The notes under the pieces: model-generated
Databases searched by the model: none
Told to the model about the DNA's origin: nothing
Seen by the model: only the letters and a program-made list of their open reading frames with translations
Position numbers and translations under genes: made by a program
From: Gammaproteobacteria bacterium
GTDB taxonomy: Bacteria > Pseudomonadota > Gammaproteobacteria > Coxiellales > Coxiellaceae
NCBI GenBank assembly: GCA_030429175.1
Contig: JAUIDD010000004.1
Span: forward strand, 26,349-90,348
Reading direction: 5' to 3'
Length of the DNA: 64,000 bases
Shown: positions 19,365 through 46,066 of the stretch, piece by piece
How positions within the stretch are numbered: the stretch's first letter is position 1
Layout of the letters: each line of letters opens with the position of its first letter

Positions 19365-20530
19365 AAAAGCTCTTTATCGCTATCATTCTTATTTTGCTCG
19401 CAGTCTTAATTGGCTACCTGATCGATAAAGATGCGGGCTACGTGATGCTGTCTTATAATGGCTACACAGTAGAAACAAGCCTATGGGTAACTATTGTTGT
19501 GGTTATTGTTTTTTTCTGTTTACTCTATTTTTTGATTCGTTTGATGAAAGGTACCTCAAACCTAGGCAATTCCTATAAAAAATGGGGCAATCAACGCAAA
19601 GCTGATAACGCGCGTGAACTCACTAATCAAGGATTATGTGATTTAGCTGAAGGTAATTGGCAGGCAGCACAAACAAACTTAGCTAAAGCCGCCAAACATC
19701 ATCCCGATCCATTGATTAATCATCTGGCAGCAGCACGTGCGGCACACACTGCCAAAGACTATAACAAACGTGATGAGCATTTACGCTTAGCACACCGCTC
19801 TAAAAAATCAGCAGCCGTTGCCATTGGTCTTACCCAAGCAACCTTACAAATCGATGGTAAACAATGGGAGCAAGCACTTGCAACCTTAAATCATTTAAAA
19901 ACTATCGCCCCTAATCACAAACATGTGCTTAAATTATTGTGTGACGTACACCTTGAATTACAAGACTGGGAACAACTACAAAAACTATTACCTAATTTAA
20001 AGCGTGCTAAAATCTTCGATGATACAGAGTTTGAAGCTATCGACAGGCAAATTCATTTCGGCCTGTTACGCCAGGCATGCCAATCTCAAAACATTGATAC
20101 TCTACATCAAACCTGGAATGCCTTACCTAAAAAATGGCGACAAGATCCATTAATATTAACCGAGTATACCAGCAACTTAATTGCACTTAATGATGCACAA
20201 CATGCCATAGATCTTATCACCAAAGCACTTAAGAAGAATTGGAACACACATCTTGTCACTAATTATGGCCTGGCAACAAGTGATGATATACATAAACAAA
20301 TTAACATGGCAGAGCACTGGCTTGAACAACATCCTGGCGAACCTGAGCTATTACTTTGCATTGGTAGACTTTATCTAAAAGCAAATTTACCAGGTCGTGC
20401 AGAAGACGTCTTAAGTAATTGTATCACTAACGCAGATATGCCAGAGGCCTATAAAGCACTGGCCCAAGCCTTCGAAGCATTAGGTAAAACTGAGCAGGCA
20501 ATGGTGATGTATAAAAAAGCACTACAATAG
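19361..20530 (+). CDS. hemY: HemY-family TPR membrane protein
   Basis: Two N-terminal TM segments are followed by TPR-like repeats. It has an ATGA overlap with hemX. Confidence 0.8.
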   Translation: MKKLFIAIILILLAVLIGYLIDKDAGYVMLSYNGYTVETSLWVTIVVVIVFFCLLYFLIRLMKGTSNLGNSYKKWGNQRKADNARELTNQGLCDLAEGNWQAAQTNLAKAAKHHPDPLINHLAAARAAHTAKDYNKRDEHLRLAHRSKKSAAVAIGLTQATLQIDGKQWEQALATLNHLKTIAPNHKHVLKLLCDVHLELQDWEQLQKLLPNLKRAKIFDDTEFEAIDRQIHFGLLRQACQSQNIDTLHQTWNALPKKWRQDPLILTEYTSNLIALNDAQHAIDLITKALKKNWNTHLVTNYGLATSDDIHKQINMAEHWLEQHPGEPELLLCIGRLYLKANLPGRAEDVLSNCITNADMPEAYKALAQAFEALGKTEQAMVMYKKALQ

Positions 20531-20647
20531 ATAATAGCAGCATTTATCTTCTTCTGCTTTCATTAGATATCATCTTTAAACTAAAAATTTCTTAGACATT
20601 GGAGCATATTTAGTACTTCAATCATAAGGAGTCGTTTCATTTACTCC

Positions 20648-30682: not shown

Positions 30683-31144
30683 ATGAGCATTACACTTGAT
30701 GAATATACTTCACAACTAAACTCACTAGGAAAAAGCAAATGTCTAGGTATTTTTTTTAGAAATTCATCCCTACGTACTCTAACACAAAATTGTCTTGCTT
30801 ATGCTTCTATCAACACACCCGATGAAATGGAAGAAAAAGATAAAATTTCTCGACTGAACGCATTTTTAATTTCTGCTTACAATAAATACCCTCGCCTAAG
30901 AAAACACCTAAAAAAACTATTGAGTCAGACTCTAGAAATTGAAAAAGCCAAATGGGATGAGTACAAACTAGGCAACTTAAGATTACAAGCGTCACTATTC
31001 CCAGCATATGTGAAATGTGATCTTCCTTCGCCAAGACCAGAAAAAATAATTCAAGATCCCATTATCACTTACCTAAAAAATCACCCAAAACTAAAAATAT
31101 CGGATATTCATATTGACAATAAACGCAAAGGAGCTTTTGTGTGA
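30683..31144 (+). CDS. hypothetical protein (orphan), translationally coupled to panB
   Basis: An AGGAG RBS lies 5 nt before the ATG at 30683. About 153 aa. The stop overlaps the panB GTG start (GTGTGA). Confidence 0.55.
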   Translation: MSITLDEYTSQLNSLGKSKCLGIFFRNSSLRTLTQNCLAYASINTPDEMEEKDKISRLNAFLISAYNKYPRLRKHLKKLLSQTLEIEKAKWDEYKLGNLRLQASLFPAYVKCDLPSPRPEKIIQDPIITYLKNHPKLKISDIHIDNKRKGAFV

Positions 31145-32016
31145 ACAATACCTGCCCACCCAATGAAAAACAAAGAAAAAAAATCAGCTTGCTACACTTG
31201 AACAAGATGAAAGTGGATGGTGAAAAAGTCGTTTTTCTTACTGCTTATGATTACCCATTAGCCAGCTTAGCTGATCAGGCTGGCGTAGACATGATACTAG
31301 TAGGTGACTCATTAGGCATGACTGTACTTGGTCACAAAACAACACTTCCCGTTACAATGAATGACATGATATCTCATTGCCAGGCTGTAAACCGAGCCGT
31401 TAATCATGCCTATATTGTTGGTGACATGCCATATATGTCCTACCAACCATCAGACCGTGATGCCATTATCAATGCAGGGCGCTTTATGTCAGAAGCAGGC
31501 TGTGATGCAGTCAAATGCGAAGGAGGAAAGCGTATTGAATCACGTGTAAAAGCTATGGTTGATGCCGGAATAACAGTAATGGGGCACTTGGGTTTAACAC
31601 CTCAGAATATGAGCCAACTCGGTGGATTCAAAGTGCAGGGGAAAACATTTGAAAGTTATAAAATACTCCTCGAAGACGCAATAGCTCTTGAAGAAGCTGG
31701 CGCCTCTTTCTTGCTATTAGAAGCAATGCCGCCTGAAGTAGCCACCAAAATTTGTGACCAACTTTCTATTCCAGTATATGGGATTGGTGCTGGAAGTGAG
31801 CTGGATGGGCAACTTGTTATTATGCATGATATTATTGGCCTATTTGACCAATTTAAGCCTAAATTTGTGAAACAATACTGTAATGCTGGAAAATTAATTA
31901 AAGAGGCAATTACAGATTACTGCCATGATGTAAGACACAAACTATTCCCTCAGCCAGAGCACTTTTACAAAGCAAAAGATGCTGAGCTTGGTAAGAAATT
32001 ACTCGAACATAATTAG
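31141..32016 (+). CDS. panB: 3-methyl-2-oxobutanoate hydroxymethyltransferase (ketopantoate hydroxymethyltransferase family)
   Basis: Contains KISLLHLNKMK...FLTAYDYPLASLADQAGVDMILVGDSLGMTVLGH...GDMPYMSY...VKCEGG, colinear with PanB. A GTG start is needed to keep the conserved N-terminus. Confidence 0.88.
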   Translation: MNNTCPPNEKQRKKISLLHLNKMKVDGEKVVFLTAYDYPLASLADQAGVDMILVGDSLGMTVLGHKTTLPVTMNDMISHCQAVNRAVNHAYIVGDMPYMSYQPSDRDAIINAGRFMSEAGCDAVKCEGGKRIESRVKAMVDAGITVMGHLGLTPQNMSQLGGFKVQGKTFESYKILLEDAIALEEAGASFLLLEAMPPEVATKICDQLSIPVYGIGAGSELDGQLVIMHDIIGLFDQFKPKFVKQYCNAGKLIKEAITDYCHDVRHKLFPQPEHFYKAKDAELGKKLLEHN

Positions 32017-34659
32017 GTCAAACTTCTCTGTGTAATTCTCTATGATTTGCTTAAGTGCGCTTGTGTTCTTTTGCTCTATGATACTCATATGTGTTGTATT
32101 TGGAATTTCATGTATTTGTATCTCTTTACGACTAAATGACTTCCAGCCATTTACTGTTGTTATATCAGAGTGCTCTGCTTTAATGAAGAATATTTCCTCA
32201 ACACTGCCAGTAAGGTGGACATCAAGCCCAGCCCTTACTGTTCCTTCAAATGTGAAAATAAATCTTTCGAGCACTCCCATAAGCGCTTTGTCCTGAATTA
32301 GCCTCTTAATATCTATCTTCTCATATATAAAACGAATTAAATCTGGCAAGTACATACTTAAATCAAAATCATTTATTTTTTCTAAGTCCTCAAGTGTGAT
32401 CGATGTATGAAGATATTTATTTAATTCATTTATATAAAATGATATTGCTTGGGCATTTACTTTAGCTACCTTCTCTTGTTGCTCCCGATAAACATTAGCA
32501 CAAGCGCTATCAATCATAATAAGTAATGGCACACAATAACCCAGCTGCTCCATTCTTTTAGTGGTTGCATAAGAAATTGCCCCCCCAGCAGACCAACCTC
32601 CAATGATACAAGGGCCTTGTACAATTGATGTAATTTTTTTCGCGTATAAATCGGCTAACCACTCCATTTTAAAATATGGCGTGCGGTGTATGCTACTAAC
32701 TTCTTTATAAGGAAACTCGATAGCATAAACTTTTCTATTAGAAATAGCACTACCTAAGCTTTCATAGCAAATGACCGTTCCCCCACCAGGATGCATTAAA
32801 AATAAAGGCAAATTATTACTTTTTCCTCCGTGAGTTTTTTTATTTAATAAAATCGGCAACTCTAATTTGTTTGGACTTTTTTGATATGAAATTAGCTCGT
32901 TAGAAATACTTTTTACTGTTGCACTACCTAATATCAAGCTAATCGGAAAATAAATTGCATATTTATGTTCTATTTTAGCAACAATAGCTACAGCCAAAAC
33001 AGAGGTGCCGCCTAAAGATAGGAAGTTATCATCAGTGCTGATATTATCTGTCGCTAAAACACTTTTCCAAATGGCTAATATTTCTTTTTCTGTTTCATTC
33101 TCTGGCGCTATTAATGATTTTGATACATTATGCGCTCTAATTGAAAATAAAGACTTAAGTTTTAACTTATCTACTTTCCCATGTTTTGATAGAGGCAATG
33201 CATCAAGTATTACTATCAAGCTTGGCACCATAAAGGAGGGTAAGAGACCTGCTAAGAAAGCTCTAATATCTTCACTAGTAATATTTGCATGTTGATTCAA
33301 AACAATCGCCGCGGCTAATTGAACTGAGTTATTGTTTGTTTTTAAATCCAAAATAACAGCCCGACTAATATCTGAATGTGATAATAAAGTTTTTTCAATT
33401 TCAGGTAACTCGACACGATAACCGTTAATTTGAACCTGTTGGTCGATGCGACTTATGAATTCAATGTTTCCATCTGGCAAAAGTCGGCCCATATCTCCCG
33501 ATTTATAAAAACGCTCCCCAGTCTTTGGATGTACGATAAACTTTTCAGCCGTTAATTCTGGTGCTTTCCAGTATTCTCTAGCTAGCCCAATACCAGAAAA
33601 AAACATTTCTCCAATTTCCCCAACTGTACAGCGAGTGAAATTTTCATTAAATAGCTGCATATGTTGGCCTTCAATTGCCTTACCATATGGAATACTCTTC
33701 CAGCTTGGGAGTACCTCATTAATAATGTACCAGCATCCCCAAATAGAAGTTTCTGTCGATCCGCCCCCAGACATTACAGTCGCATTAGGAAAAATCTTTT
33801 TAAGTCTATCTGGCAGATTTAATGGGATCCAATCTCCACCAAGGGCAACTAATTTTACTTTTGGAAAAACATAATCGTCTGATTTACCCATAAACTCTAC
33901 ATAGTCTGCGAGCATTTGCCCTAAAGCTGGTGCTGTATTCCAGATAGTTACATCATATCTATCAAGATACTCGAGCCAACATTTTGGATCGTTTCTTTTT
34001 TCAGGATCAGGCATAACAATCGTGCCACCAGCACTTAACAGACCAAAAATATCATAGACAGATAAATCAAAAGAAACCGGCGAGAGCGATAAGACAGAAT
34101 CTGCTGCAGTCACAGAAAACGTTTGATTAAAAACTTCGAGCGTGTTGTAAATAGAGTGATGTTCAATAGCAACACCCTTTGGTGTTCCAGTTGAGCCAGA
34201 AGTAAATATCACATATGCAAGATCTGATGAGCTGGTATCTTTATCATCCCATGTAGTTTCTTCAACCTGCTGCTTTGCGTTAATATTAATTAAGTCATAA
34301 TCTTGTAACCATTTATATTTTGATATAATATACTCATCTGTGATAACAAGCCTAGCACAACTCACCTTCAATATATTTTTAATTCTACCTTCGGGCCATG
34401 TGGGATCAATAGGAAAATAAGCACACCCAGCCAATACAACACCTAAATTCGCTATGACCTGATCACAGCTTTTATCTAATACAACCGCAACCAAATCATT
34501 AGATACTGCATGCGTTAAAATATTATTTGCAATAGTTTGAGCATAATGAAAAAGTTGTTTGTAACTCAAGGTAGCATTCTTTTGAATCACGGCTATTTTA
34601 TTTGGGACCCTTTGATATGCCCTCACAGCATTAGTGTAAATTAATTTTTCAACATTCAT
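31999..34659 (-). CDS. NRPS-like single module: adenylation - thiolation - thioesterase (A-T-TE), no condensation domain
   Basis: The A cores are LSYKQL, FTSGSTGTPKGVAIEH, FDLSVYDIFG, GGGSTETSIW, YKSGDMGR, GRIDQQVQINGYRVELPEIE and HGKVDK. The T site is FLSLGGTSVLAV. The TE has GGWSAGG plus IPNTTHMSI. Confidence 0.9.
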   Translation of the reverse strand: MNVEKLIYTNAVRAYQRVPNKIAVIQKNATLSYKQLFHYAQTIANNILTHAVSNDLVAVVLDKSCDQVIANLGVVLAGCAYFPIDPTWPEGRIKNILKVSCARLVITDEYIISKYKWLQDYDLININAKQQVEETTWDDKDTSSSDLAYVIFTSGSTGTPKGVAIEHHSIYNTLEVFNQTFSVTAADSVLSLSPVSFDLSVYDIFGLLSAGGTIVMPDPEKRNDPKCWLEYLDRYDVTIWNTAPALGQMLADYVEFMGKSDDYVFPKVKLVALGGDWIPLNLPDRLKKIFPNATVMSGGGSTETSIWGCWYIINEVLPSWKSIPYGKAIEGQHMQLFNENFTRCTVGEIGEMFFSGIGLAREYWKAPELTAEKFIVHPKTGERFYKSGDMGRLLPDGNIEFISRIDQQVQINGYRVELPEIEKTLLSHSDISRAVILDLKTNNNSVQLAAAIVLNQHANITSEDIRAFLAGLLPSFMVPSLIVILDALPLSKHGKVDKLKLKSLFSIRAHNVSKSLIAPENETEKEILAIWKSVLATDNISTDDNFLSLGGTSVLAVAIVAKIEHKYAIYFPISLILGSATVKSISNELISYQKSPNKLELPILLNKKTHGGKSNNLPLFLMHPGGGTVICYESLGSAISNRKVYAIEFPYKEVSSIHRTPYFKMEWLADLYAKKITSIVQGPCIIGGWSAGGAISYATTKRMEQLGYCVPLLIMIDSACANVYREQQEKVAKVNAQAISFYINELNKYLHTSITLEDLEKINDFDLSMYLPDLIRFIYEKIDIKRLIQDKALMGVLERFIFTFEGTVRAGLDVHLTGSVEEIFFIKAEHSDITTVNGWKSFSRKEIQIHEIPNTTHMSIIEQKNTSALKQIIENYTEKFDLIMFE

Positions 34660-34866: not shown

Positions 34867-35694
34867 ATGGAAAATCATGATCTACCTTACACATCCAATA
34901 AGCCAAACACGTCAAGTTTCAGAAGTGATTTTTTTCGCTCCATCTTATTGGGCTCAACAACTGTTACAGTTGTCACACCAATATCAAACTACAATAACCA
35001 TTTAATTCGCATCTTAAATCATCAAACTAAATCAGCCTTTACTGCGCGAAGAGCATTTGATGGTGTAATTGCATACAATACCTCAGTTGCCCCTACAATA
35101 GCGATATCATTAATTATTAATGAAGTTTTACGAAAGAAAGATCAAAAAAACAATCAAATGACAACCAGCTACAAACAATTTGCGTATTCCATATACTCTG
35201 GGTGTATTTCGGCTATGTTTGGAAACTTCCCTGAGGCAATTGCGCAAGCACAACAATTATCAACCCCTAAACCATCCTTTGTAAAAATTCTAAAAAATGC
35301 AGTTCATCACAATGGGCCACTTGTGATTAATAGAGGATTATTTGCGACTGCGGTAAAACAAGTCACATTTAATATCGGGTTTATGTGGATGATGCCAATG
35401 CTCATTAATGAAACAGAATCAAAAGGTAGCGGCAAAATATGCTCTTTAGCTACTGCATCAATTTTAACAGGGCTCTTTGTAGGCATTAGCACAGCTCCCA
35501 GTAACACCTTACGCTGGCACAAACATCATCAAGTTGACCGTCCTTCAAATGTACCTTCATATACCAGCGTACTTAAAAACGCATTTAATAACCGATCATA
35601 CGGGGCCAGTTTATTTTCAGGCTGGAAACCACGATCAATCATGTCTGCTGTCTCTATGCTGATACTGCACGAAGGTCGAAAAGTATTAAATTGA
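34867..35694 (+). CDS. hypothetical membrane protein with possible threefold mitochondrial-carrier-like repeat
   Basis: 275 aa. Three ~90-aa segments each end in a G..(Y/F/W)..-type helix (AFDGVIAYNTSVAPTIAISL; INRGLFATAVKQVTFNIGFMWMM; SLFSGWKPRSIMSAVSMLILHEG). Each is preceded by degenerate Px[DE]xx[KR]-like sites (FPEAIAQA, APSNTLRWH). Confidence 0.6.
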   Translation: MENHDLPYTSNKPNTSSFRSDFFRSILLGSTTVTVVTPISNYNNHLIRILNHQTKSAFTARRAFDGVIAYNTSVAPTIAISLIINEVLRKKDQKNNQMTTSYKQFAYSIYSGCISAMFGNFPEAIAQAQQLSTPKPSFVKILKNAVHHNGPLVINRGLFATAVKQVTFNIGFMWMMPMLINETESKGSGKICSLATASILTGLFVGISTAPSNTLRWHKHHQVDRPSNVPSYTSVLKNAFNNRSYGASLFSGWKPRSIMSAVSMLILHEGRKVLN

Positions 35695-35695
35695 G

Positions 35696-37057
35696 CTAAT
35701 CATCTCTTTGGCTGTAGGTAATACCTAGTATTACCCCCACAAGATAAATGCCCATTGCACTAAGCAATGTAATTTCCATGCCAACTATATACGATGGACT
35801 AATCGCTAAGATTGAACCAAATGCAGCAACACCAACCAAACTGCCCATTTGTCGAGCTGTGGTAAACGTGCTTGTAGCCATACCTGCATATTTTTCTGAT
35901 ACGGCATGAATTACAATGTAGGTTGCTGCTGGCATAGTAAATGCAGCACCAAAACCAATTGCAGCTAAAGGAGCAACAAGCCAGTAATATGCTAGATTCG
36001 CTTTAATTGTCATAGCAAGAGATAGAAAACCAACTGCACCAACCATTAGCCCTAAAAGCACTGAAATGCGCGGGCCGTTACGAGCAATTATCCTACCTGA
36101 TAAATATGATGCGACAGCTGCTAAAATTAAAAATGGCAATACAGCAAAACCTATTTTAGTCACTGAATATTGCCTAACCTTACTAAAATATAATGGTAGT
36201 AAAAATAGTTGGCCATATGCCCCACAGTTGATAATGAAACCTATTATATTCGAGCATGAGAATGCAGTTGATTTAAAAAAACCTAAGGGTAGCATAGGAT
36301 ACTGCACATATTTCTCAGTAATGATTAGAAGCGCAAAGCTAACAAAAATGAGAATTAAAATACTTATAATAAACGGCGACCCCCACCCATATTTTTCTAC
36401 TTCTATCAATACTATTGCTAATGACACAGTAAACAAAAATGCAAACATTTGACCAAGCCAGTCTATTGGCTTTTTATCAGTAGTTTTTTTTGTTACATTA
36501 ACCACAGAATATATTAGCAAAATAGCACATAGTGCTATAGGTATATTCACAAAAAATACTGCACGCCAATTGAAAAGCGCTGTCAATACTGAGCCGGCCA
36601 CTGGCCCGCTTGCAGAAGCAACGCCAGCTACACCACCCCAAATACCAATGGCTTTAGCAAATTCTCTTTTTTCGATAAACGTTAGCTTAATAATACTTAG
36701 TGATGCTGGAATTAGAAATGTTGCAGTGAACCCCTGAAGGACGCGAAATATAGACAACATTAACACATTGGAAGACAACCCGCAGGCAAGTGAAGTAACG
36801 AGAAAACCAATCAACCCTAAAGCTAAAGTGCACTTGGGACCAAAGTAATCTGTTAAATTACCAGCCAATAATAATAAGCTAGCAAAGCTAATCGTATAAC
36901 CAACAATAACCCATTGCACGCCAGAAATATTAGTATGTAGTCCCTCAGTAATAGCAGGCAATACAACATTTACAATTGTCGTGTCGAGAATTACCATGAA
37001 AAAACCAAGACACATTGTAAAAAGGATAATCTTTTTTTGACGTTCAGAACTAAGCAT
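35696..37057 (-). CDS. MFS efflux transporter, DHA2 (EmrB/QacA, 14-TMS) type
   Basis: Starts ...LFTMCLGFFMVILDTTIVNVVLPAI and contains LAGNLTDYFGPK. Many TM segments. The start is set at the ATG at 37057 (MLSSERQKK) rather than the TTG at 37093. Confidence 0.8.
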   Translation of the reverse strand: MLSSERQKKIILFTMCLGFFMVILDTTIVNVVLPAITEGLHTNISGVQWVIVGYTISFASLLLLAGNLTDYFGPKCTLALGLIGFLVTSLACGLSSNVLMLSIFRVLQGFTATFLIPASLSIIKLTFIEKREFAKAIGIWGGVAGVASASGPVAGSVLTALFNWRAVFFVNIPIALCAILLIYSVVNVTKKTTDKKPIDWLGQMFAFLFTVSLAIVLIEVEKYGWGSPFIISILILIFVSFALLIITEKYVQYPMLPLGFFKSTAFSCSNIIGFIINCGAYGQLFLLPLYFSKVRQYSVTKIGFAVLPFLILAAVASYLSGRIIARNGPRISVLLGLMVGAVGFLSLAMTIKANLAYYWLVAPLAAIGFGAAFTMPAATYIVIHAVSEKYAGMATSTFTTARQMGSLVGVAAFGSILAISPSYIVGMEITLLSAMGIYLVGVILGITYSQRDD

Positions 37058-37199
37058 ACTTATTATAGTGGGCAAAAAAAATAAAAATAGCAAGTTCTGA
37101 GTAACGATGAAACAGTATAATTATATTGATTACTTGATCACAAGGTATCTACTGATATATATTCACATGCTTACTCAAAATATATTATTAAGGATGCTT

Positions 37200-38717
37200 A
37201 TGAACTGCCTAAAACAACTCGACATCAAAGACCTTAACTCCGGTGCTTGCTCAGGCATTGATAAGTGGGCCGAGATAGGCACACAACAAATCAGCTCAAT
37301 TAATCCATCGACCGGGGAGACAATTGCAAAGGTAGCGACTGTTAACAAAACACAGCTAGATTTCAATATAGATACGGCCATGCAAGCGGCAAAAAAATGG
37401 CGTGATGTACCTGCACCACAACGTGGTGAAATTATTCGTCAAATAGGTATCGCCCTGCGTGAACATAAAGATGCGCTTGGCACATTAGTTTCTCTTGAAA
37501 TGGGTAAATCAAAGCAAGAAGGTGATGGCGAAGTACAGGAAATGATTGATATTGCAGATTTTGCTGTAGGGCAGTCACGCATGCTGTATGGAAAAACTAT
37601 GCATTCAGAACGCCCATTTCACCGTATGTATGAGCAGTGGCACCCATATGGTGTAGTTGGGGTGATTTCAGCATTTAACTTTCCTGTAGCCGTATGGGCC
37701 TGGAATGCTTTTATCGCAGCAATTTGTGGTAATGTCACAATTTGGAAACCATCTGAGAAAACACCCCTATGCGCAATAGCCGTTCAGAATATCTGCAATG
37801 CTGTCCTCAAATCAAATCAGTGCCCAGATATTTTTTCTTTTTTTCTACCACATGATCATACCCTTGTTGAAAACTTTGTGCGTGATCCACGGATACCTTT
37901 AATTTCTTTCACAGGCTCAACACAAACAGGAAAACATATTTCAAAAATAGTAGCAGGCCGTTTGGGCAATTCAATTTTAGAACTGGGCGGCAATAATGCT
38001 GTGATTATCGATGAGTCTGCAGACTTATCGTTAGCACTTCCTGCAGTTGTATTTGGCGCTGTCGGTACAGCAGGCCAACGCTGTACCTCAACACGTCGCG
38101 TTTTTATTCATCATTCAATATATAATACATTTCTTGCTTCTTTAAAAAATGCATATCAACAAATTACCGTTGGTGACCCACTTAATGAAAATAATCTGAT
38201 GGGGCCCTTGATCGATCAAGGATCAGTACAAAATTTTGTTAGCACAATTGAGCAAGCGGTAGCGAGTGGAGGTAAAATCGAATCTGGCGGTAGCGCACTC
38301 AAAGGTGATGGATTTTACGTTGAGCCAACGATCATTACCGGCCTTTCGAATGAGTCTGCACTCATTCAAAAAGAAACGTTTGCACCTATTTTGTATGTCA
38401 TGCCATTCGACACCATGGATGAAGTACTCACCATACATAATGATGTTAAACAGGGTTTATCATCAGCCTTATTTACGCAAAATTTAAAAAGTGCTGAGTT
38501 ATTTTTATCTGCAAAAGGTAGTGATTGCGGCATCGCTAATATTAATATTGGCACTTCAGGTGCTGAAATTGGTGGCGCATTTGGCGGCGAAAAAGAAACT
38601 GGTGGCGGACGTGAATCGGGCTCAGACGCCTGGAAAGCCTATATGCGTCGGCAAACCAACACCATAAATTGGAGTGATGATCTGCCATTAGCACAGGGCA
38701 TAAAATTTAATTTATAA
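37200..38717 (+). CDS. ALDH7/antiquitin-type aldehyde dehydrogenase (piperideine-6-carboxylate / alpha-aminoadipic semialdehyde dehydrogenase-like)
   Basis: Contains [87 protein letters not shown] and GQRCTSTRR. This closely matches my recollection of ALDH7A1/AmaB. The start choice of 37200 (AAGGA RBS) is uncertain, with alternatives at 37107, 37167 and 37194. Confidence 0.85.
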
Positions 38718-38731
38718 GCAAAAATTTTCGG

Positions 38732-39628
38732 TTACTGTAAATTTACTCCAGCTTTAGGCTCAGTTTGTGGGTTTTCATGACACTCGGCTATAATTTGCTT
38801 CAGTTGTGTAAGATGCTTTTCTTCTACTATTGATAAGTGAGATGTATTTGGAATTTCACACAATTGCATTTTCTGACGACTAAAGTTCCCCCAAGCATTC
38901 GCTGAACTTTTATCAGATTGCGCTGCTTTGATATAGAAGATACTTTCGACATCTTCATTAATATGAGAACTCAGCACTGCCCTCACAATACCTTCGATGG
39001 TATACTTAAACGCTTCCAATCTATCAATTGAGGCTTCTTTTTTGATAAGGCTTTTGATATCTAATGTTTCATAGACAAAATGCATCAAGTCCGGTAAGTG
39101 CATATCTATGTCAAAACCTTGTTTTTCTTCTATGGTGCTCAACTGTACTCTACTTGAAAAATATTTATTTAAGTTATCAAGATAAAACATTAAAGCTTGA
39201 CGATTTACCATCGCCACCTTGTCCTGCTCTTCGCGATAAACATTCGGGCAAGCACTATCAATCATAATAACTTGAGGAACAGACTTACCTAATGCTGACA
39301 TCTGCTTAGCAACCGCATATGCAATGGTACCACCAGCTGACCAGCCACCAATTAAACAAGGACCCTCTACAACTGATCTAATTTTTTGCACATACAAATT
39401 AGCTAGCCATTCAATTTTAAAGTTAGGCGTGTCAAATACACGCTTAACTTCATGATATGGAAATTCAATGCCATATATCTGTCTACTATCTACAGACAAT
39501 AATTTATCATAACAATCAATAGCACCACCACCTGGATGTATCAAAAATAAAGGCAAACAGTCAGGCTCTTGTAGATCTATGTCACCATTTATTAAAACAG
39601 GCATGGCTTTTTTATGATCACGAAACAT
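38732..39628 (-). CDS. stand-alone thioesterase (alpha/beta hydrolase), paralog of the TE domain of the A-T-TE protein
   Basis: Contains LFLIHPGGGAIDCY, GGWSAGG, MIDSACPNVYRE and IPNTSHLSI. Colinear with residues ~610-886 of the 31999-34659 product. Confidence 0.85.
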   Translation of the reverse strand: MFRDHKKAMPVLINGDIDLQEPDCLPLFLIHPGGGAIDCYDKLLSVDSRQIYGIEFPYHEVKRVFDTPNFKIEWLANLYVQKIRSVVEGPCLIGGWSAGGTIAYAVAKQMSALGKSVPQVIMIDSACPNVYREEQDKVAMVNRQALMFYLDNLNKYFSSRVQLSTIEEKQGFDIDMHLPDLMHFVYETLDIKSLIKKEASIDRLEAFKYTIEGIVRAVLSSHINEDVESIFYIKAAQSDKSSANAWGNFSRQKMQLCEIPNTSHLSIVEEKHLTQLKQIIAECHENPQTEPKAGVNLQ

Positions 39629-39663: not shown

Positions 39664-40449
39664 TTATAATGCGCCACATAAATTTCCCGCATCAACAACC
39701 ATCGCACTACCATTAATATAAGAAGACGCATCAGAAAGTAAAAACACAACCGTATCAGCTACTTCCTCGGGTGTACCAAGCCTACCGCCTGGAGAGCTTT
39801 CGATCAAATTTGCAAGCTTTTCTTCTGGTATATGATCTAAAATAGGTGTTTTTATGATGCCTGGGCAGACCGCATTTATACGAATATTATCTCGAGCATA
39901 CTCCACTGCAGCCGCACGTGTTAAACCAATAAGTGCATGCTTACTAGCTGTGTAAGCAATGGATCGACTGTTCGCCGTTTTTAAGCCTGCAATAGATGCA
40001 CAATTTACAATGGAACCAGATTTATTTTGGAACATATGATGCAATTGATGACGCATACAGTGCCATACTCCTTTTAAGTTAGTATCAAATATATCATCCC
40101 AATTTGCTTCGGATGAATCATGAAAACGCTGTCCATTTAAATAACTATCATTGCCTATCTTCCCAGCACAATTAAATGCACCATCAATTCTTTTATAGTC
40201 AGAAATTGATCTCATAAAAAAATCATCAATACTGCTCTTACACGTGATGTCTGCTTTATAAAAGGACGCTTTAACGTTAAATTTTTGCTTGAGCGTATCT
40301 GCTATTTCATTACCTTTCTGGATATTTCTACCGGCAATTATAATATTAGCCCCTTGCTTTGCTAATGCAAAAGCCGTTGCAGCACCTATACCCGAAGTAC
40401 CACCGATTATCATGATATTTTTGTTACTAAATTTCATTTCCATTTGCAA
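39664..40449 (-). CDS. short-chain dehydrogenase/reductase (SDR, FabG-like)
   Basis: Contains IIGGTSGIGAATA (TGxxxGxG), NCAG, the YTASKHAL catalytic Tyr-x3-Lys, and PGIIKTP. The start may be a few codons downstream (MKFSNK). Confidence 0.88.
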   Translation of the reverse strand: MQMEMKFSNKNIMIIGGTSGIGAATAFALAKQGANIIIAGRNIQKGNEIADTLKQKFNVKASFYKADITCKSSIDDFFMRSISDYKRIDGAFNCAGKIGNDSYLNGQRFHDSSEANWDDIFDTNLKGVWHCMRHQLHHMFQNKSGSIVNCASIAGLKTANSRSIAYTASKHALIGLTRAAAVEYARDNIRINAVCPGIIKTPILDHIPEEKLANLIESSPGGRLGTPEEVADTVVFLLSDASSYINGSAMVVDAGNLCGAL

Positions 40450-43400
40450 TCCTATCTAAAGCTTTTTCAATTTGATCTTGCGTATGCATAGCAGTTACAG
40501 ACGTTCTTATCAAGGATTTGTTTTTTGCATTCCATGGGGGGAGTGCTGGAAAAACATAAACTCCAGCATTATAAAAACGTTCATAGAGTTGTTTAGTATG
40601 ATCATCATCACGTGTCTTTATGGCAGTAATTGCCGATTCACTTTTGATTATATCAAAGCCTAGTTTTTCTAACCCATCACGCCACATTACAGTATTTGCC
40701 CGCAGGTTTTCAAACAAGCTGGGTGTATTCTTAATAACCTTAAATGCGTATGCTGCAATTCTTGCTTGTATAGGCGGTATTGCACCGGAAAATATGCTAC
40801 CGCCTTTCATTTGAACATTTTCAAATATGGCTTTATTAGTGGCAATATAGCCGCCAATACTGGGGATGGCCTTACTTAACGTACCAATACGAATATCTAT
40901 TGTACCCGGCATATTAAAATATGATTCTACCCCAGCACCATTAGCACCGAGCTGCCCTAATGAACAGGCTTCGTCAACCATAAGTAACGCCTGATACTTG
41001 TCTACTAAAAATTTTATTTCAGGTAATGCTAATATCGTTCCCTCCATACTATAGAGCCCTTCAGTAATAATGATTTTTTTACCTGTCGCATTTCTCAGGC
41101 GATGTAATTTTTTTTCTAAATGCGTCATGTCGTTATGCTTAAAGCTGTGAAAGTGTGCATGAGACAAAGAACAACCATCTATAATTGATTGGTGGCAAGC
41201 ACTATCAATAAAAATATGATCATGCGAATTAGCTAAAGTAGGTATTATAGAAATGTTAGCCATATAAGCAGAATTATATAACAATACTTCATTACAATTA
41301 TAAAGCTGCTTTATTTCATTAATTAAATCAACATGAAAACAAGTTTTCCCGTTAAGCTCCATAGCGCCATGCGAATTGATACTACAATCTTGATCTAGGT
41401 GATCTAATACTGCTTGACGAACGATAGAGTGTCTACCTAAACCCAAATAACTATTAGAACAAAAGTGATCTATTATTTTTTTATCTATTTTAATTTTAGT
41501 AGAAGAAATATATTCGATATGTTTATTCTTTAGAATTTTCCCTGCATGAACATCACCATTAGCAACCACAAAGGCATAGTTAGTATTTGAGTTATTCACT
41601 TGATCAATACTGTTGATGATTTCCAATATTGTTGGCATTTTAGAATTGTAAGTTAAGTTAATATTGTACTTTTTTCTAATTCTATTTAAAAATTCTATAT
41701 AGTTTAAAGAGGTAAATCCTAGCTGATTAAGAGTAGTTTTGTTATCAATCAAGTGAATAGGTATGCTTAAAATATCAGAAACCATACTAATGATACTTTC
41801 AGATATTGTGGATGCTTTCGTTTGATGCAATACTTTATTTCTACCAACATAGTCATGTGCATTAGACTTTAAGAGCTTATAGTCTACTTTTCCATTTTTA
41901 GTTAATGGTATCTTATCTTTGATGATAAAAACTCTAGGAATCATATATTTTGGTAAATGCTTCTCTAAAAAATGTCTAGCTTCCTTTTTAAATTTTTCAT
42001 TATCAGTTTCACCCCCTGATATATTCGCAACTAAAAAAGCGATTAATACATGCTCTTTTCTCTGAGTGAAGATAGCTAATGTAACAGCATCTTTTATCTT
42101 ATTAAATTGTATAAGTATGTTATCGATATGAGATAACTCTACTCTGTGACCATCAATTTTAATTTGACTATCGACTCTACCTAAGCACTGAGCACCAAAA
42201 TCACTTGAATAGACGCCTAAATCACCGGTCTTGTAGATAAAATCATCTTTTAATTGTGAAAAAGGGTTAGTTGAAAATGCATCATTACCTGGAGCATTAA
42301 GATAACCTTTAGCAATGTAAGGGCTTCTAACCCATATTTCTCCAACTTCACCAACATCACAAAGCTTTTTTGTTGCTTGATTTACAATTAAAATATCCAC
42401 ATCCTTCATGCCCTTGCCTATGGGCACTACACTTGGAATTTTCTGTAAATTTTGTGTCACATTAAAATAACTAACTGCTCTCTGAGTCTCAGTTGAGCCA
42501 TATAAATTGATCACATCAACATAAGGCGCTATATATTGCAAATCTTCGACTTGTTTTTTTAACAGGCTTGTACCAACAAAGAAGATTTTTCGTAACGTGT
42601 TAAGCTTTATGTTCTCTGAATTATATAAAGTTAGAAATTGGCACATAGGAGGTGTTAGACAACACACAGTAATTTTTTTATGGGCCATCCACTGGGGCAG
42701 TTGCCCTGGCGTAAAAATTGCCTGTTGACTAGGTATTACAATTGTACCGCCTAAACAAATAGCTGTAAAAATATCCCTCTGAATTGGATCATGTGACAGG
42801 TTTGAACACATAGCAAACCTGTCACTGCCATTGATGCCAAACTCTTTTTGCATCCACCCCTGAAAGTGACTAAGGGAGGAATGCCGCCCCATCACAGCTT
42901 TAGGAGTCCCATTGCTTCCAGAGGTAAAAGTTATTGTGGCAGTATCATCACCTGAGATTTTAGGAAAAATAGCATTTTCTTTGGCAACATGATGTAACTG
43001 TACTAAATTTGCTATATCAGTAATAGAATTTAAATTAAAAGTTAGTTTAAATACACGCTTAATAAGCAAATCAATTTCTAACTTTTTTTCTTTGTTAATA
43101 GTACAAGCCTCATGGCTTAGGTCAATCCATACAGATGGCTTGGCTTGTTTTATACAACTCTCAAGATACTCAACAGGGTCACTCGGATCCAAAAGAGAAA
43201 ACGTGGCACCTACTTTCAAAGTTGCTAGAATACTAATAACCAACAATGGTGTTCTACTAGCATAAATAAACACCGTACTATTTTTTTTTACTCCCTCTTG
43301 TAGTAGTACTATAGCAAAATCAGTCACTGCGTGGTTCAGATCATGATAACTTAGGCTCACTGTATCTGACTCAATCGCAATATCATTTGGATTAGCCCGC

Positions 43401-43534
43401 GCCATTTCTAACAAGATTTCCGACACCAGCTTATCTTCGCTTGGCTCACTGTGACACGGGAACGCCTCAGAAGGCAATGGTATGTTATTACAAGAAGACT
43501 TAAGGGTTTTTATATCTAAATTATATACGCTCAT
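40427..43534 (-). CDS. trifunctional adenylation - thiolation - PLP-dependent alpha-oxoamine synthase (AONS/SPT/KBL family) fusion protein
   Basis: The A cores are FTSGSNGTPKAV, NLSHDPIQRDIF, LYGSTETQ, YKTGDLG, GRVDSQIKIDGHRVELSHID and NGKVDY. The T site is LNQLGFTSLNYIEF. The AOS domain has FCSNSYLGLG, NGKTCFHVDL, SAYMAN, DSACHQSIIDG, TEGLYSMEG, VDEACSLG and GTLSKAIPSIGGY (PLP lysine). Confidence 0.9.
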   Translation of the reverse strand: MSVYNLDIKTLKSSCNNIPLPSEAFPCHSEPSEDKLVSEILLEMARANPNDIAIESDTVSLSYHDLNHAVTDFAIVLLQEGVKKNSTVFIYASRTPLLVISILATLKVGATFSLLDPSDPVEYLESCIKQAKPSVWIDLSHEACTINKEKKLEIDLLIKRVFKLTFNLNSITDIANLVQLHHVAKENAIFPKISGDDTATITFTSGSNGTPKAVMGRHSSLSHFQGWMQKEFGINGSDRFAMCSNLSHDPIQRDIFTAICLGGTIVIPSQQAIFTPGQLPQWMAHKKITVCCLTPPMCQFLTLYNSENIKLNTLRKIFFVGTSLLKKQVEDLQYIAPYVDVINLYGSTETQRAVSYFNVTQNLQKIPSVVPIGKGMKDVDILIVNQATKKLCDVGEVGEIWVRSPYIAKGYLNAPGNDAFSTNPFSQLKDDFIYKTGDLGVYSSDFGAQCLGRVDSQIKIDGHRVELSHIDNILIQFNKIKDAVTLAIFTQRKEHVLIAFLVANISGGETDNEKFKKEARHFLEKHLPKYMIPRVFIIKDKIPLTKNGKVDYKLLKSNAHDYVGRNKVLHQTKASTISESIISMVSDILSIPIHLIDNKTTLNQLGFTSLNYIEFLNRIRKKYNINLTYNSKMPTILEIINSIDQVNNSNTNYAFVVANGDVHAGKILKNKHIEYISSTKIKIDKKIIDHFCSNSYLGLGRHSIVRQAVLDHLDQDCSINSHGAMELNGKTCFHVDLINEIKQLYNCNEVLLYNSAYMANISIIPTLANSHDHIFIDSACHQSIIDGCSLSHAHFHSFKHNDMTHLEKKLHRLRNATGKKIIITEGLYSMEGTILALPEIKFLVDKYQALLMVDEACSLGQLGANGAGVESYFNMPGTIDIRIGTLSKAIPSIGGYIATNKAIFENVQMKGGSIFSGAIPPIQARIAAYAFKVIKNTPSLFENLRANTVMWRDGLEKLGFDIIKSESAITAIKTRDDDHTKQLYERFYNAGVYVFPALPPWNAKNKSLIRTSVTAMHTQDQIEKALDRIANGNEI

Positions 43535-44736
43535 TTTTGTCGTGCTCTTAGGGTCACATAGCTTTGGTCAAAATAGTTTTTTTGCTCATTATCAAAAATG
43601 AATTCAACCTGATCCTTGATGTTGCTAAGAGGTGTATCTTGTAACAAATCATTTTTGCTAAGATGTCTAAAGAAACTATGAAATAAATTTTTTATATTTT
43701 CTTTCTCAGATGTAGAATTATATTGGCTCATATTTGTGGGAATGTAATCTAGAAGCATATCAGGTAGCAAGGGTACAAACCCCTGTGTTCCGGAAATTTT
43801 ATAATTAAATGGTTTTGCACAGAGTACTTCAAATGTATATTTACTACCGAAAATATTTTCAAAGAACTCTTTGAACGCGTTATAAGGTAACTCAGCTTCG
43901 CCCGCCTGAGCAAAACTTGTTAGGCTGCCACATGCAATGCTGATTAAATGCTTCACAAATGACACTGTCAGTGGACTCTCATCATTGTTAACACATTGTG
44001 TTAGTAAGCCATCCCACGCCCACCTAAAACGCCAAAGCTTTGATCTAAGCCAAATCAACTGTTTGATTTCATCATAAAAAGGCTGCCACGCTGGGTTGTT
44101 TTCATTTTCGTACCAGCTACTTGGAAACAAGAGTATTTCAGAATACCAATCTTCAGCATGAAAAAGCTTATTTTGAACTAATGCTGAAGCCACGCAATCA
44201 AAATTTACACAACCATATTTTGTTAAGCCTCTATGAGAAATGCCTAGCTCATGGCAAATTTTTTTGCCAATACTCTCTTGATCTTCCTGACAATAAAGTA
44301 ATGATGTTTTAACCCCGGAATACCAATTCCAAATATGCGGAACCATACTTGAAAAAGTATCATCCCTATCATTGAGTCCAGTTAACTTCCCTGGTGATAG
44401 TATTGAAACAGGGAGATTCACCTTTGGATAGTCAAATGATACCTCTATGTGATTATGAGAACATAAATACATCGGAAAGAAGCGAATACCATTGAAAGCC
44501 TTCCTTACGAGCTTATCAGTATTTTTATCATCTAGCGGTACTAAATCGCCAGAAGCACTTGGAAAGCATAATACGCCATCATGAAGTATTTGTGACCCAT
44601 AAGAATATCGAGCTAGAAACAAGCTATGCTCATCTTGCAAAGGTAACTTGTCAACAATTCTTGCAAAGTCAGGATTTAATTTAGAAATACTATCTTTTGA
44701 TTCGCTCAAAGTTAGTTTTTTAATAGAAGAATGCAT
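43531..44736 (-). CDS. hypothetical protein (orphan ~401 aa), translationally coupled to the A-T-AOS gene
   Basis: An AGGAG RBS precedes the ATG at 44736 (MHSSIKKLTL). The stop overlaps the start of the downstream gene (ATGA). It is Trp-rich, with no TM segment and no recognisable motif. Confidence 0.65.
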   Translation of the reverse strand: MHSSIKKLTLSESKDSISKLNPDFARIVDKLPLQDEHSLFLARYSYGSQILHDGVLCFPSASGDLVPLDDKNTDKLVRKAFNGIRFFPMYLCSHNHIEVSFDYPKVNLPVSILSPGKLTGLNDRDDTFSSMVPHIWNWYSGVKTSLLYCQEDQESIGKKICHELGISHRGLTKYGCVNFDCVASALVQNKLFHAEDWYSEILLFPSSWYENENNPAWQPFYDEIKQLIWLRSKLWRFRWAWDGLLTQCVNNDESPLTVSFVKHLISIACGSLTSFAQAGEAELPYNAFKEFFENIFGSKYTFEVLCAKPFNYKISGTQGFVPLLPDMLLDYIPTNMSQYNSTSEKENIKNLFHSFFRHLSKNDLLQDTPLSNIKDQVEFIFDNEQKNYFDQSYVTLRARQK

Positions 44737-44968
44737 ATTATCTCCTGCTAATTGCAATACCCAATTTTCCAAAATTGTTAAGTTTATCTGGTTCCAACTA
44801 AATTTCAATACAATATCATAGGAGTTTCTCACTTTTAAAGTGCGAAACTCCTTGTATCACTAAAAAGACCATTCCCTCATAGCTACTAAATAAACCCGTA
44901 TGTGTATATTTTTTATTGTTTATTTGATAGTGTAGACACCTCAAAGCAATTTAATAGGATAATAAATA

Positions 44969-46066
44969 ATGGACAAATACCCCGTAATGGCTCAAGTTAA
45001 GCAAAATGATACTGTTATTGATATCACACAAGAAAAAAATAAAAACATCAAAGTCAGATTATTATTAGCTGGAACTTGTTTTATAACATATTTTTCTGTC
45101 ACACAAATAGGTGGGGAAGGGATTGAAAAACTATTTAATTTATCTCATGATTCTTCCTTTGGCCCTATTTTAGCTGTTGGCGTATTAGCAAGTCTAACAG
45201 CTGGCGGGTTCTATTTTCGTGCATTAAATGGAATAAAGTTAAAACCACAGAAAGCTAATGAATATTATTTACTGCCATTTACACCATTTGCAGCAGCACC
45301 AATCTTTACTGGCGCTTACCTTGGTGCAAAAACCCTTGGGCTACCTAAATCATTGTGCATAATAAATGCCCTCATTTCTTTTATGATTAGATTTTCAGTC
45401 GTATGGGATGGCGCGATCAAGTGCCCTACAAAATTAAAAGACATGAAATGCAGCTTTAACAATGCATATATTAGTCGAAATATACCAAATCTCATACGCT
45501 TAACTGCAGCATGTCTGCTCACATTAGGGTATTCAGTGAGTCTTTCAGATGCAATCTATGAGGCAAGCGCTCTTATGCTTTCTTGGGCACATGTCTCTGA
45601 ATCAATTATCCTCCCTTTTGCTTATACGACAAGCGGACTTGGTATTGTTGGAACGATACCTTACATTTTATATTGGTTAAGCTTAGGACTCGATATGCTC
45701 ACTAATGGGAAAAACTTTAATGATTCCATCACTGACCGCTACACTTACATAGCCGCAGTTATGTCAATCCCAAGTATCATTGGCATTCTCGGTACTGCAA
45801 CATCAGCTTCTGGAGAAGTTTTTGCAAAACTCGGCCTAACAGCTGCAATTATTCGTTTTATTACATCTGTTAGCTATGGAATTGTAGTTAATACAATCGC
45901 GTTTTCAGGCGTCATACGAAAAGCTACTCAACGACACTACAATCCTGGCATTTTCTCGGCGCAGGGCTCGAGCACAAAAGTAGAATACGAACCTTTTCTT
46001 ATCAATGACCCTGAAAAAGATCCAGATGATGTAATACCTAACTCAAACTCTTATGGTACACTTTAA
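44969..46066 (+). CDS. polytopic membrane protein, hypothetical
   Basis: 365 aa with about 8-9 hydrophobic segments and a hydrophilic acidic C-terminal tail. No family recognised. Confidence 0.6.
   Translation: MDKYPVMAQVKQNDTVIDITQEKNKNIKVRLLLAGTCFITYFSVTQIGGEGIEKLFNLSHDSSFGPILAVGVLASLTAGGFYFRALNGIKLKPQKANEYYLLPFTPFAAAPIFTGAYLGAKTLGLPKSLCIINALISFMIRFSVVWDGAIKCPTKLKDMKCSFNNAYISRNIPNLIRLTAACLLTLGYSVSLSDAIYEASALMLSWAHVSESIILPFAYTTSGLGIVGTIPYILYWLSLGLDMLTNGKNFNDSITDRYTYIAAVMSIPSIIGILGTATSASGEVFAKLGLTAAIIRFITSVSYGIVVNTIAFSGVIRKATQRHYNPGIFSAQGSSTKVEYEPFLINDPEKDPDDVIPNSNSYGTL

Follow-up and report, generated by a model that had tools for sequence, protein, structure and literature searches.

What is released from a Lys2-type adenylation-thiolation (A-T) didomain when it leads into a domain of alpha-oxoamine synthase (AOS) type instead of a reductase? 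The question is raised by a gene in a 64,000-nucleotide stretch of contig JAUIDD010000004.1 (hereafter the window), from a gammaproteobacterium of the Coxiellaceae. In this gene, an intact open reading frame (ORF) with an ATG start, at 40427..43534 on the minus strand, encodes a protein of 1035 amino acids that joins the three domains (A-T-AOS), and the next gene of the operon encodes a short-chain dehydrogenase/reductase (SDR). The explanation that best covers the locus as a whole, and which we are somewhat inclined to accept, is that aminoadipate would be loaded onto the A-T part and set free in a Claisen condensation with a second amino acid, and that the SDR would then reduce the product.

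In Pfam searches, the protein matched AMP-binding at residues 44-412 (E 3e-63), AMP-binding_C at 470-549, PP-binding at 580-628 (ACP_SdgA_C also matches the carrier region), and Aminotran_1_2 at 691-1029 (E 7e-39); neither a condensation (C) domain (PF00668) nor a reductase domain (PF07993) gave a Pfam match in the 1035 residues. This bears out the domain order put forward in an initial annotation of the DNA, whose ORF coordinates, given there without the strand, are exact, and the motifs quoted there were all located and their codons verified, namely HDPIQRD at residues 248-254 of the A domain, GFTSL with Ser609, VDEACSLG with Cys857, and GTLSK with Lys888. GFTSL is found at residue 606, and its Ser609 (codon 41708-41710) is the predicted phosphopantetheine attachment site and is invariant in the A-T-AOS family. 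With the A-domain core motifs TSGSNGTPK, YGSTE, YKTGD, and NGKVD, this serine, and a C-terminal release domain, the protein has the make-up of a single module of the nonribosomal peptide synthetase (NRPS) type, and its T domain (571-651) lies directly N-terminal to the AOS domain (691-1029), which is the layout of carrier-embedded AOS enzymes. Because the identical protein is found on two independent assemblies, a 149.7-kb NCBI contig and a 14-kb Logan assembly, the fusion is not an assembly chimera.

The C-terminal domain, which depends on pyridoxal 5'-phosphate (PLP) in the AOS family, is homologous to AOS enzymes over its whole length by Pfam, NCBIfam, and PDB comparison. Its closest solved structures are the serine palmitoyltransferases (SPTs) 3a2b (E 3e-58, the alignment covering residues 9-361 of the 367-residue domain query) and 2jg2 (E 4e-51), followed by KBL, ThAOS, ALAS, and AONS, and the NCBIfam models for bioF, SPT, and KBL scored 281, 275, and 267 bits, respectively, each below its equivalog cut-off. 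The histidine that makes a hydrogen bond with PLP-O3' in the D-x-A-H motif of the AOS family is missing, and Cys857 stands there instead: HMMER aligned 'mvdeaCslgqlg' with 'lvdeaHsmgffg' of the Sphingomonas SPT (SpSPT), placing Cys857 (codon 40964-40966) on His234, and Cys857 lies 31 residues before the Schiff-base Lys888 (codon 40871-40873), the same spacing as between His234 and Lys265 (the SpSPT numbers D231, H234, and K265 in 2jg2 were counted from the alignment start). The His-to-Cys change read earlier from the motif spacing is therefore real when set against the SPT structures, and the other catalytic residues checked proved to be kept. K888, D854, H781, and R1010 align with SpSPT K265, D231, H159, and R390, i.e. 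the Schiff-base Lys, the Asp to the pyridinium nitrogen, the His that stacks and binds the carboxylate, and the Arg that also binds the carboxylate. Among 5.8 billion proteins, a word-indexed search turned up 17 full-length A-T-AOS clusters (16 besides the query protein), and these four residues are invariant in all 17. The His position, in contrast, is occupied by Cys in 12 of the fusions and by Ser in the other 5, as against His in 119/119 of the nearest stand-alone AOS enzymes (35-41% identity); one further Cys among the retrieved sequences occurs in a 450-residue sequence that we read as a fusion-protein fragment. Because all fusions have Cys or Ser where all these stand-alone enzymes have His, the loss is, as judged from the alignments, a defining trait of the A-T-AOS family and not a sporadic event. 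We class the PLP domain as AOS-derived and divergent and not as a canonical AOS; it also departs from the carrier-embedded AOS domains, in which the PLP-O3' histidine (His212 in S. multivorum SPT numbering) is identically conserved (PMC3870968).

The loss of the histidine does not stand alone, and the fusions without exception have N694, His722, N728, Q861, R882, and W1001, which the nearest stand-alone enzymes have rarely or not at all. His722 (codon 41369-41371), which takes the place of Asn100 in SpSPT and lies two residues before Ala724, on the loop that the partner subunit adds to the active site, may compensate for the lost His. Ala724 itself aligns with SpSPT Ser102 and ThAOS Val79, the position being Ser, Ala, or Thr across the A-T-AOS family; the correspondence of ThAOS Val79 with SpSPT Ser102 has been reported, on a loop of the partner subunit about 3.5 Å from the substrate C-alpha that controls amino-acid selectivity (PMC11906848). 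Across the family, conservation of the AOS domain is no lower than that of the A domain (identity of 76/74% for close members and ~36/38% for the most distant), which speaks for a functional AOS domain.

The best NCBIfam match of the 1035-residue protein is TIGR03443 (L-aminoadipate-semialdehyde dehydrogenase, Lys2), which spans the A-T part only (model positions 263-965) and, at 408.6 bits, stays below the family cut-off of 1030.1; models of fatty-acid ligases scored far lower. The eukaryotic Lys2 orthologs P0089 and P0067, of ~1300 residues and with a C-like-A-T-R layout (R, reductase), read SGIAHDPIQRDVFTP, including AHDPIQRD, where the query reads SNLSHDPIQRDIFTA. When the A domains of the 120 best matches were aligned with MAFFT, the specificity code of the fusion came out as DPRCFVLRAK (D249, P250, R253, C292, F318, V320, L344, R352, A353, and K549), which is identical at 8 of 10 positions to the code DPRHFVMRAK of P0089 and at 9 of 10 to DPRCFVMRAK, a code in the homolog match list. 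The differences from the fungal-type Lys2 code are Cys for His at code position 278 and Leu for Met at position 322, and Cys278 is also seen in protist Lys2-like proteins of the C-A-T-R layout (P0039, P0040, P0044, and P0047). H248, D249, P250, Q252, R253, D254, C292, R352, A353, and K549 are invariant in 17/17 fusions, and since the pocket holds two Arg and one Asp (D249, R253, and R352), it is suited to a polar substrate. By the TIGR03443 match, the shared HDPIQRD, and the code, the A domain is of the Lys2 type that the initial annotation had suggested from its A4 region, and its place is not with the ordinary A domains for fatty-acyl or amino-acid substrates. The protein as a whole is classed outside the Lys2 family because it has no N-terminal domain, no reductase domain, and a score below the cut-off, so that only its A-T part is assigned to that type.

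Lys2-type codes have a wider distribution of their own. Hundreds of bacterial NRPS modules carry them (DPRHFVYRAK, DPRNFVLRAK, and others; L014-L080 and P0018-P0120), mostly in metagenome-assembled genomes (MAGs) of Acidobacteriota, Chloroflexota, and Thermoanaerobaculia, in modules of the C-A-T and C-A-T-TE layouts (TE, thioesterase). The C-A-T-TE proteins, of ~1400 residues, may be Lys2-like enzymes in which a thioesterase replaces the reductase.

The A-T-AOS family is rare, and only 13 loci with full-length relatives came out of a pattern scan that covered 185,579 species with one genome each. They are from a Coxiellaceae MAG, several Nocardia, two Dactylosporangium, Nocardiopsis potens, Actinacidiphila yanglinensis, and a Reyranella MAG. 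The nearest relatives are from a MAG filed as 'Gammaproteobacteria bacterium' (70% identity) and a Coxiellaceae MAG (57%). In the window, the operon runs from a gene for a 433-residue protein through A-T-AOS and the SDR to a stand-alone TE, and the SDR gene starts inside the last codons of the A-T-AOS gene. In each of the eleven actinobacterial loci (L002-L012), as in L082, L084, and L086, the gene directly downstream of the fusion encodes an SDR homolog (44-84% identity), and in L001, L013, and L085 the homolog is encoded nearby. The SDR at 39664-40449, which had been named at the outset as a possible reductase of the product, is thus a real gene whose partnership with the fusion is kept in every related locus examined. 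It is the only partner that is universally conserved in these loci, which supports its action on the product of the fusion.

Other neighbours bear on the substrate and on the nature of the product. The window encodes a saccharopine-dehydrogenase-fold enzyme whose best PDB match is 3abi (PH1688, which we take to be an L-lysine dehydrogenase), as well as an L-piperideine-6-carboxylate (P6C) dehydrogenase, and these two enzymes, if correctly assigned by homology, would turn lysine into alpha-aminoadipate. In L086, where the fusion is 42% identical to that of the window, homologs of the lysine-dehydrogenase-like enzyme (43%) and of the P6C dehydrogenase (51%) are encoded directly upstream on the same strand, with gaps or overlaps of a few bases, and this operon links a supply of aminoadipate to the Lys2-type A domain. 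In Nocardia, six loci share a module of TetR, a LysE-type exporter, A-T-AOS, and SDR genes, with lysE upstream. NRPS A-T, C, or TE genes lie near the fusion in the window and in L001, L005, L010, L082, L084, L085, and L086. Among these, A-T and C genes are close to A-T-AOS/SDR in L086, C-T and A-T genes in Dactylosporangium, and an A-T gene in Actinacidiphila, and an A-T-TE gene co-occurs with A-T-AOS in the window, L001, L082, L084, L085, and L086. The amino-acid exporter and the adenylating partners near the fusion suggest that its product is still an amino acid. The locus of Dactylosporangium roseum (L005) also holds, at 19468-20586 (-), a gene for an AlkZ-like DNA glycosylase, ~6 kb from A-T-AOS/SDR and beyond the C-T and A-T genes. 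Genes of the AlkZ type serve for self-resistance in clusters for DNA-alkylating metabolites, and by this analogy the gene hints that the Dactylosporangium product may be genotoxic, with a vicinal amino alcohol as its building block.

Table. Features of the A-T-AOS locus, with positions in the 64,000-nucleotide window
Feature	Position	Strand	Basis and remarks
A-T-AOS tridomain gene	40427..43534	-	ORF, Pfam, two assemblies, 16 other full-length homologs
Lys2-type adenylation domain, aa 44-549	41888..43405	-	Pfam, TIGR03443, specificity code, codons checked
Thiolation (carrier) domain, aa 571-651	41582..41824	-	PP-binding, ACP_SdgA_C
AOS-type PLP domain, aa 691-1029	40448..41464	-	Pfam, NCBIfam, PDB alignments to SPT, KBL, and AONS
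SDR, translationally coupled to A-T-AOS	39664..40449	-	Pfam adh_short_C2, E 1e-64
Protein without family match, ~400 aa from MHSSIKK (433-aa ORF)	43531..44832	-	Stop overlaps A-T-AOS start (ATGA)
L-Piperideine-6-carboxylate (alpha-aminoadipate semialdehyde) dehydrogenase	37107..38717	+	NF050084, 758.4 bits (cut-off 730)
Saccharopine-dehydrogenase-fold enzyme, probably L-lysine 6-dehydrogenase	46102..47259	-	Pfam Sacchrp_dh_NADP and Sacchrp_dh_C
A-T-TE NRPS-like enzyme, 886 aa, code DLYNAGGIWK	31999..34659	-	Pfam; code unrelated to that of A-T-AOS
Stand-alone thioesterase	38732..39628	-	Pfam Thioesterase; kept in L001 and L082
DHA2-family MFS efflux transporter, inside cluster	35696..37093	-	TIGR00711, 240.7 bits (cut-off 230.2); conserved in L001 and L082
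MATE efflux transporter, cluster edge, membership uncertain	47472..49001	-	TIGR00797, below cut-off

The domain order, the residue identities, and the gene neighbourhoods are direct observations, from which we infer the following mechanism. L-Lysine would be converted to L-alpha-aminoadipate by the lysine 6-dehydrogenase-like enzyme and the P6C dehydrogenase, whose functions are assigned by homology and whose role in the pathway is suggested by their clustering. The A domain would adenylate the distal C6 carboxyl of aminoadipate, as Lys2 does, and load it as a thioester on Ser609, as the code and the gene context suggest. By homology with AOS enzymes, the PLP domain would form the external aldimine of an amino acid at Lys888, deprotonate it, and attack the T-bound thioester, and decarboxylation would release a 2,7-diamino-6-oxo acid, an alpha-aminoketone with its alpha-amino-acid end still free. 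The second amino acid is likely to be small (Ser, Ala, or Gly), because, as in SPT and AONS, the residue on the selectivity loop is small (Ala724). Like aminoadipate semialdehyde, a 2-amino-6-oxo acid of this kind should be in equilibrium with a cyclic Delta1-piperideine, and the SDR would reduce the ketone at C6 or else the cyclic imine, giving a 6-hydroxy amino alcohol or a 6-substituted pipecolate. In Nocardia, the product would probably leave by the LysE-type exporter, and in the window genome the A-T-TE, the stand-alone TE, the 433-residue protein, and the two efflux pumps would probably elaborate and export it; there and in several other genomes it would probably be handed to small NRPS enzymes (A-T-TE, TE) and efflux pumps.

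Several observations weigh against this pathway. The DPRxFVxRAK code is common to many bacterial C-A-T(-TE) modules (DPR[HN]FVxRAK in Acidobacteriota and Chloroflexota) and may mark a lineage rather than prove specificity for aminoadipate. The supply genes accompany the fusion in two lineages only, the window and L086, and were not found within 10 kb in L082, L084, L085, or the actinobacterial loci. Their position in the window could also be coincidental, because Legionella too has a housekeeping lysine dehydrogenase (PMC10117105). Finally, the loss of the PLP-O3' His could change the type of reaction.

These points have their counterpart in the alternatives. One of them, which we hold to be possible if unlikely, is intramolecular. 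The tethered aminoadipate would place its own amine on PLP, and its C2 carbanion would attack the C6 thioester in a Dieckmann-type ring closure, giving 2-aminocyclopentanone or, if the carboxylate is kept, 1-amino-2-oxocyclopentane-1-carboxylate, which the SDR would convert to an aminocyclopentanol. Lys2-type loading would leave the alpha-amino-acid end free on the tether, the five-atom ring would be of the kind said to be closed by an AOS-family enzyme in C5N formation, and the minimal Nocardia module of LysE, A-T-AOS, and SDR includes no gene for a special second substrate. The family-wide rewiring of the active site, with the His at position 857 gone and the six fusion-specific residues in place, would suit such a change as well. 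A more general form of this idea, to which we likewise give a low probability, is that the loss of His and the gain of His722 make a rewired AOS site with new chemistry on a substrate that serves as both acyl donor and amino acid, the closure to an aminocyclopentanone being its most striking version. A decarboxylated cyclic product, however, would not be an amino acid and fits poorly with LysE and the NRPS adenylation neighbours, and the cyclising ALAS that would be the precedent is said to keep the canonical His, so that the loss of His would still be unexplained. Ranked with it, and likewise unlikely, is the loading of a different acid under an otherwise unchanged A-T-AOS logic, such as glutamate, some other amino acid of dicarboxylic or basic nature, or an analogue with a 2-oxo or hydroxy group, the Lys2-like signature being a matter of ancestry. 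The Cys and Leu at code positions 278 and 322 would agree with this, as would the many bacterial DPRxFVxRAK modules that have no assigned substrate and the absence of aminoadipate supply genes from most related loci; on the other hand, the protist C-A-T-R proteins share Cys278, the code matches at 8-9 of 10 positions, and the genes for the lysine dehydrogenase-like enzyme and the P6C dehydrogenase are co-operonic with the fusion in L086 and within the cluster in the window.

It is decidedly improbable that the PLP domain no longer catalyses a Claisen condensation at all and is a structural or dimerisation remnant, or one that transaminates, decarboxylates, or racemises the tethered substrate. 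The conservation of His in the stand-alone enzymes and in the carrier-embedded AOS domains (PMC3870968) would speak for such a change. Lys888, D854, H781, and R1010 are nonetheless invariant, Cys and Ser are both potential hydrogen-bond donors to O3', the conserved SDR fits a ketone or imine product, and without another release domain the T-bound acyl group would have no exit. With the AOS domain and the A domain equally well conserved, a pseudo-enzyme in particular was judged unlikely. An SPT-like lipid pathway, in which a fatty acid is loaded and a sphingoid-base-like or autoinducer-like long-chain aminoketone is made, was rejected as extremely improbable on A-domain type and gene context, since, although SPT comes closest to the PLP domain among solved structures and the SDR mirrors the logic of 3-ketosphinganine reductase, the A domain is of the NRPS/Lys2 type with fatty-acid ligase models far behind, its charged pocket suits a polar substrate, and the neighbours are genes for aminoadipate supply, the LysE exporter, and NRPS enzymes, not lipid genes.

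Aminoadipate loading with Claisen release and SDR reduction thus being the preferred pathway, the remaining genes of the cluster can be set around it. The 433-residue protein encoded upstream of the fusion has no sequence match in Pfam, NCBIfam, or PDB, and homologs lie upstream of the fusion in L001 (20002-21213), L082 (8799-9998), L084 (8799-9998), and L086 (6197-7369). A profile built from it retrieved 754 representative clusters (466 at E<1e-10), mostly of 430-460 residues and also unannotated. Ten of these distant relatives gave empty Pfam and NCBIfam scans, and the genomic contexts of three were uninformative, so that the protein appears to belong to a sizeable uncharacterised family. 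AlphaFold2 modelled it with a pLDDT of 91.6 from a 97-sequence alignment (48.6 from a 5-sequence alignment), and a Foldseek search of the model against PDB gave only weak matches to cNMP-binding/CRP beta-barrels (best E 1.5e-3, TM ~0.25). At the other end of the operon, the stand-alone TE is ~57% identical to the TE domain of the A-T-TE enzyme (31999-32880, -), and the same duplication is seen in L001 and L082. Adjoining the A-T-TE gene is a PanB (ketopantoate hydroxymethyltransferase) homolog at 31141-32016 (+; Pfam, 357 bits), and PanB homologs stand beside A-T-TE in three related clusters, the window, L082 (19182-20054), and L084 (4951-5967, flanked by transposases); the gene may be part of the pathway, e.g. 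in the modification of a 2-oxo acid, rather than housekeeping.

Three further genes of the window are of less certain bearing. A 275-residue protein at 34867-35694 (+) has a weak Pfam match to mitochondrial carriers (E 1e-4, about at the cut-off) and is 68% identical to a protein encoded near the related cluster of L082 (21652-22476). Eukaryote-like carrier proteins are known as Legionella effectors, and by analogy a protein resembling mitochondrial carriers fits a host-associated organism of the Legionellales or Coxiellaceae kind. Between the operon and the lysine-dehydrogenase-like gene, a divergent gene at 44969-46066 (+) encodes a predicted membrane protein of 365 residues without a family match in Pfam or NCBIfam. 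Just past the MATE pump, at 49175-49825 (-), lies a gene for a PLP-homeostasis protein of the YggS family (TIGR00044, 241 bits), which is probably a housekeeping gene found here by coincidence.

If the proposed pathway is correct, A-T-AOS and the SDR would form a compact two-gene cassette that turns a lysine catabolite into a non-proteinogenic amino acid of the diamino-hydroxy or pipecolate type, and small nonribosomal peptide pathways of Coxiellaceae-like intracellular bacteria and of actinomycetes could draw on this product. Because it would need no CoA thioester, the self-contained, carrier-based enzyme could also serve as a biocatalyst for alpha-aminoketones, and the ring closure, if true, would let one enzyme turn a lysine catabolite into a carbocyclic amine or amino acid. 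The family-wide replacement of His by Cys or Ser is in addition a natural experiment on a residue held invariant in AOS enzymes. As to whether the system has been described before, our survey of the literature, whose incomplete coverage makes this weak evidence, met with neither a Lys2-type A-T-AOS nor an AOS family without the His, and no such gene is mentioned in a paper on Legionella secondary metabolism. The generic A-carrier-AOS layout, on the other hand, is not new, since Milano et al. (2013, PMC3870968) list uncharacterised A-CP-PLP2 (A-CP-AOS) proteins from Microscilla marina and Blastopirellula marina and model a Synechococcus 'AMP-binding enzyme' to represent them. The suggestion in the initial annotation that a Lys2-like A-T-AOS is undescribed therefore looks right for the Lys2-type, His-less subfamily and does not extend to the architecture itself.

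Set among known systems, the protein would work as a hybrid, activating its substrate in the manner of Lys2 and releasing and reducing it in the manner of SPT with a ketoreductase. The carrier-fused AOS enzymes share much of their layout with A-T-AOS. In SxtA, PigH/RedN, RedL, and the A-CP-PLP2 proteins, as in the fusion, the carrier is N-terminal to the AOS domain and the acyl group is off-loaded by condensation with an amino acid, but these enzymes load acetate- or polyketide-derived or fatty-type acyl groups, whereas A-T-AOS has a Lys2-type A domain and Cys or Ser in place of His; none of them was found among the full-length relatives in the protein search and the genome scan. SxtA, PigH/RedN, and RedL are known carrier-AOS fusions. 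A bacterial version of the SPT route uses three proteins, an acyl-ACP synthetase, an acyl carrier protein (ACP), and Spt. SPT with 3-ketosphinganine reductase follows the same order as the proposal for A-T-AOS, i.e. acid activation, carrier thioester, PLP-dependent Claisen condensation, and SDR reduction, but with separate proteins, a fatty acyl donor, and His234, where A-T-AOS is fused, has a predicted polar amino-acid donor, and has its His replaced. A cyclising ALAS reportedly closes a five-atom ring on ALA-CoA in C5N-unit pathways, as Zhang, Walsh and colleagues are said to have described in 2010. It would be the precedent for the intramolecular ring closure considered above, but it is a stand-alone enzyme that uses a CoA thioester and is said to have a canonical site, and nothing in the sequences linked it specifically to A-T-AOS. 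BioW, the pimeloyl-CoA synthetase, is not known as an A domain of the ANL family. In BioWF, it is naturally fused to AONS (PMC9544090), so that an ATP-dependent acid-activating domain and an AOS act, as in A-T-AOS, on a C6-C9 diacid-type substrate, but through free pimeloyl-CoA, with no carrier domain, and in biotin synthesis. For the A-T part, the system to compare is Lys2 (TIGR03443; ADA-A-T-R), which has in common with the fusion the type of A-T didomain, HDPIQRD, and, as predicted, the same substrate activated at the distal carboxyl. Lys2 has an ADA (pseudo-condensation) domain and an NADPH-dependent reductase, whereas A-T-AOS is without the former and has the AOS domain in place of the latter. 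The thioester is released by reduction in Lys2 and, as we propose, by the formation of a C-C bond in A-T-AOS, which would then be a third mode of release for a Lys2-type aminoadipoyl thioester, beside reduction in Lys2 and peptide bonding in ACV synthetase.

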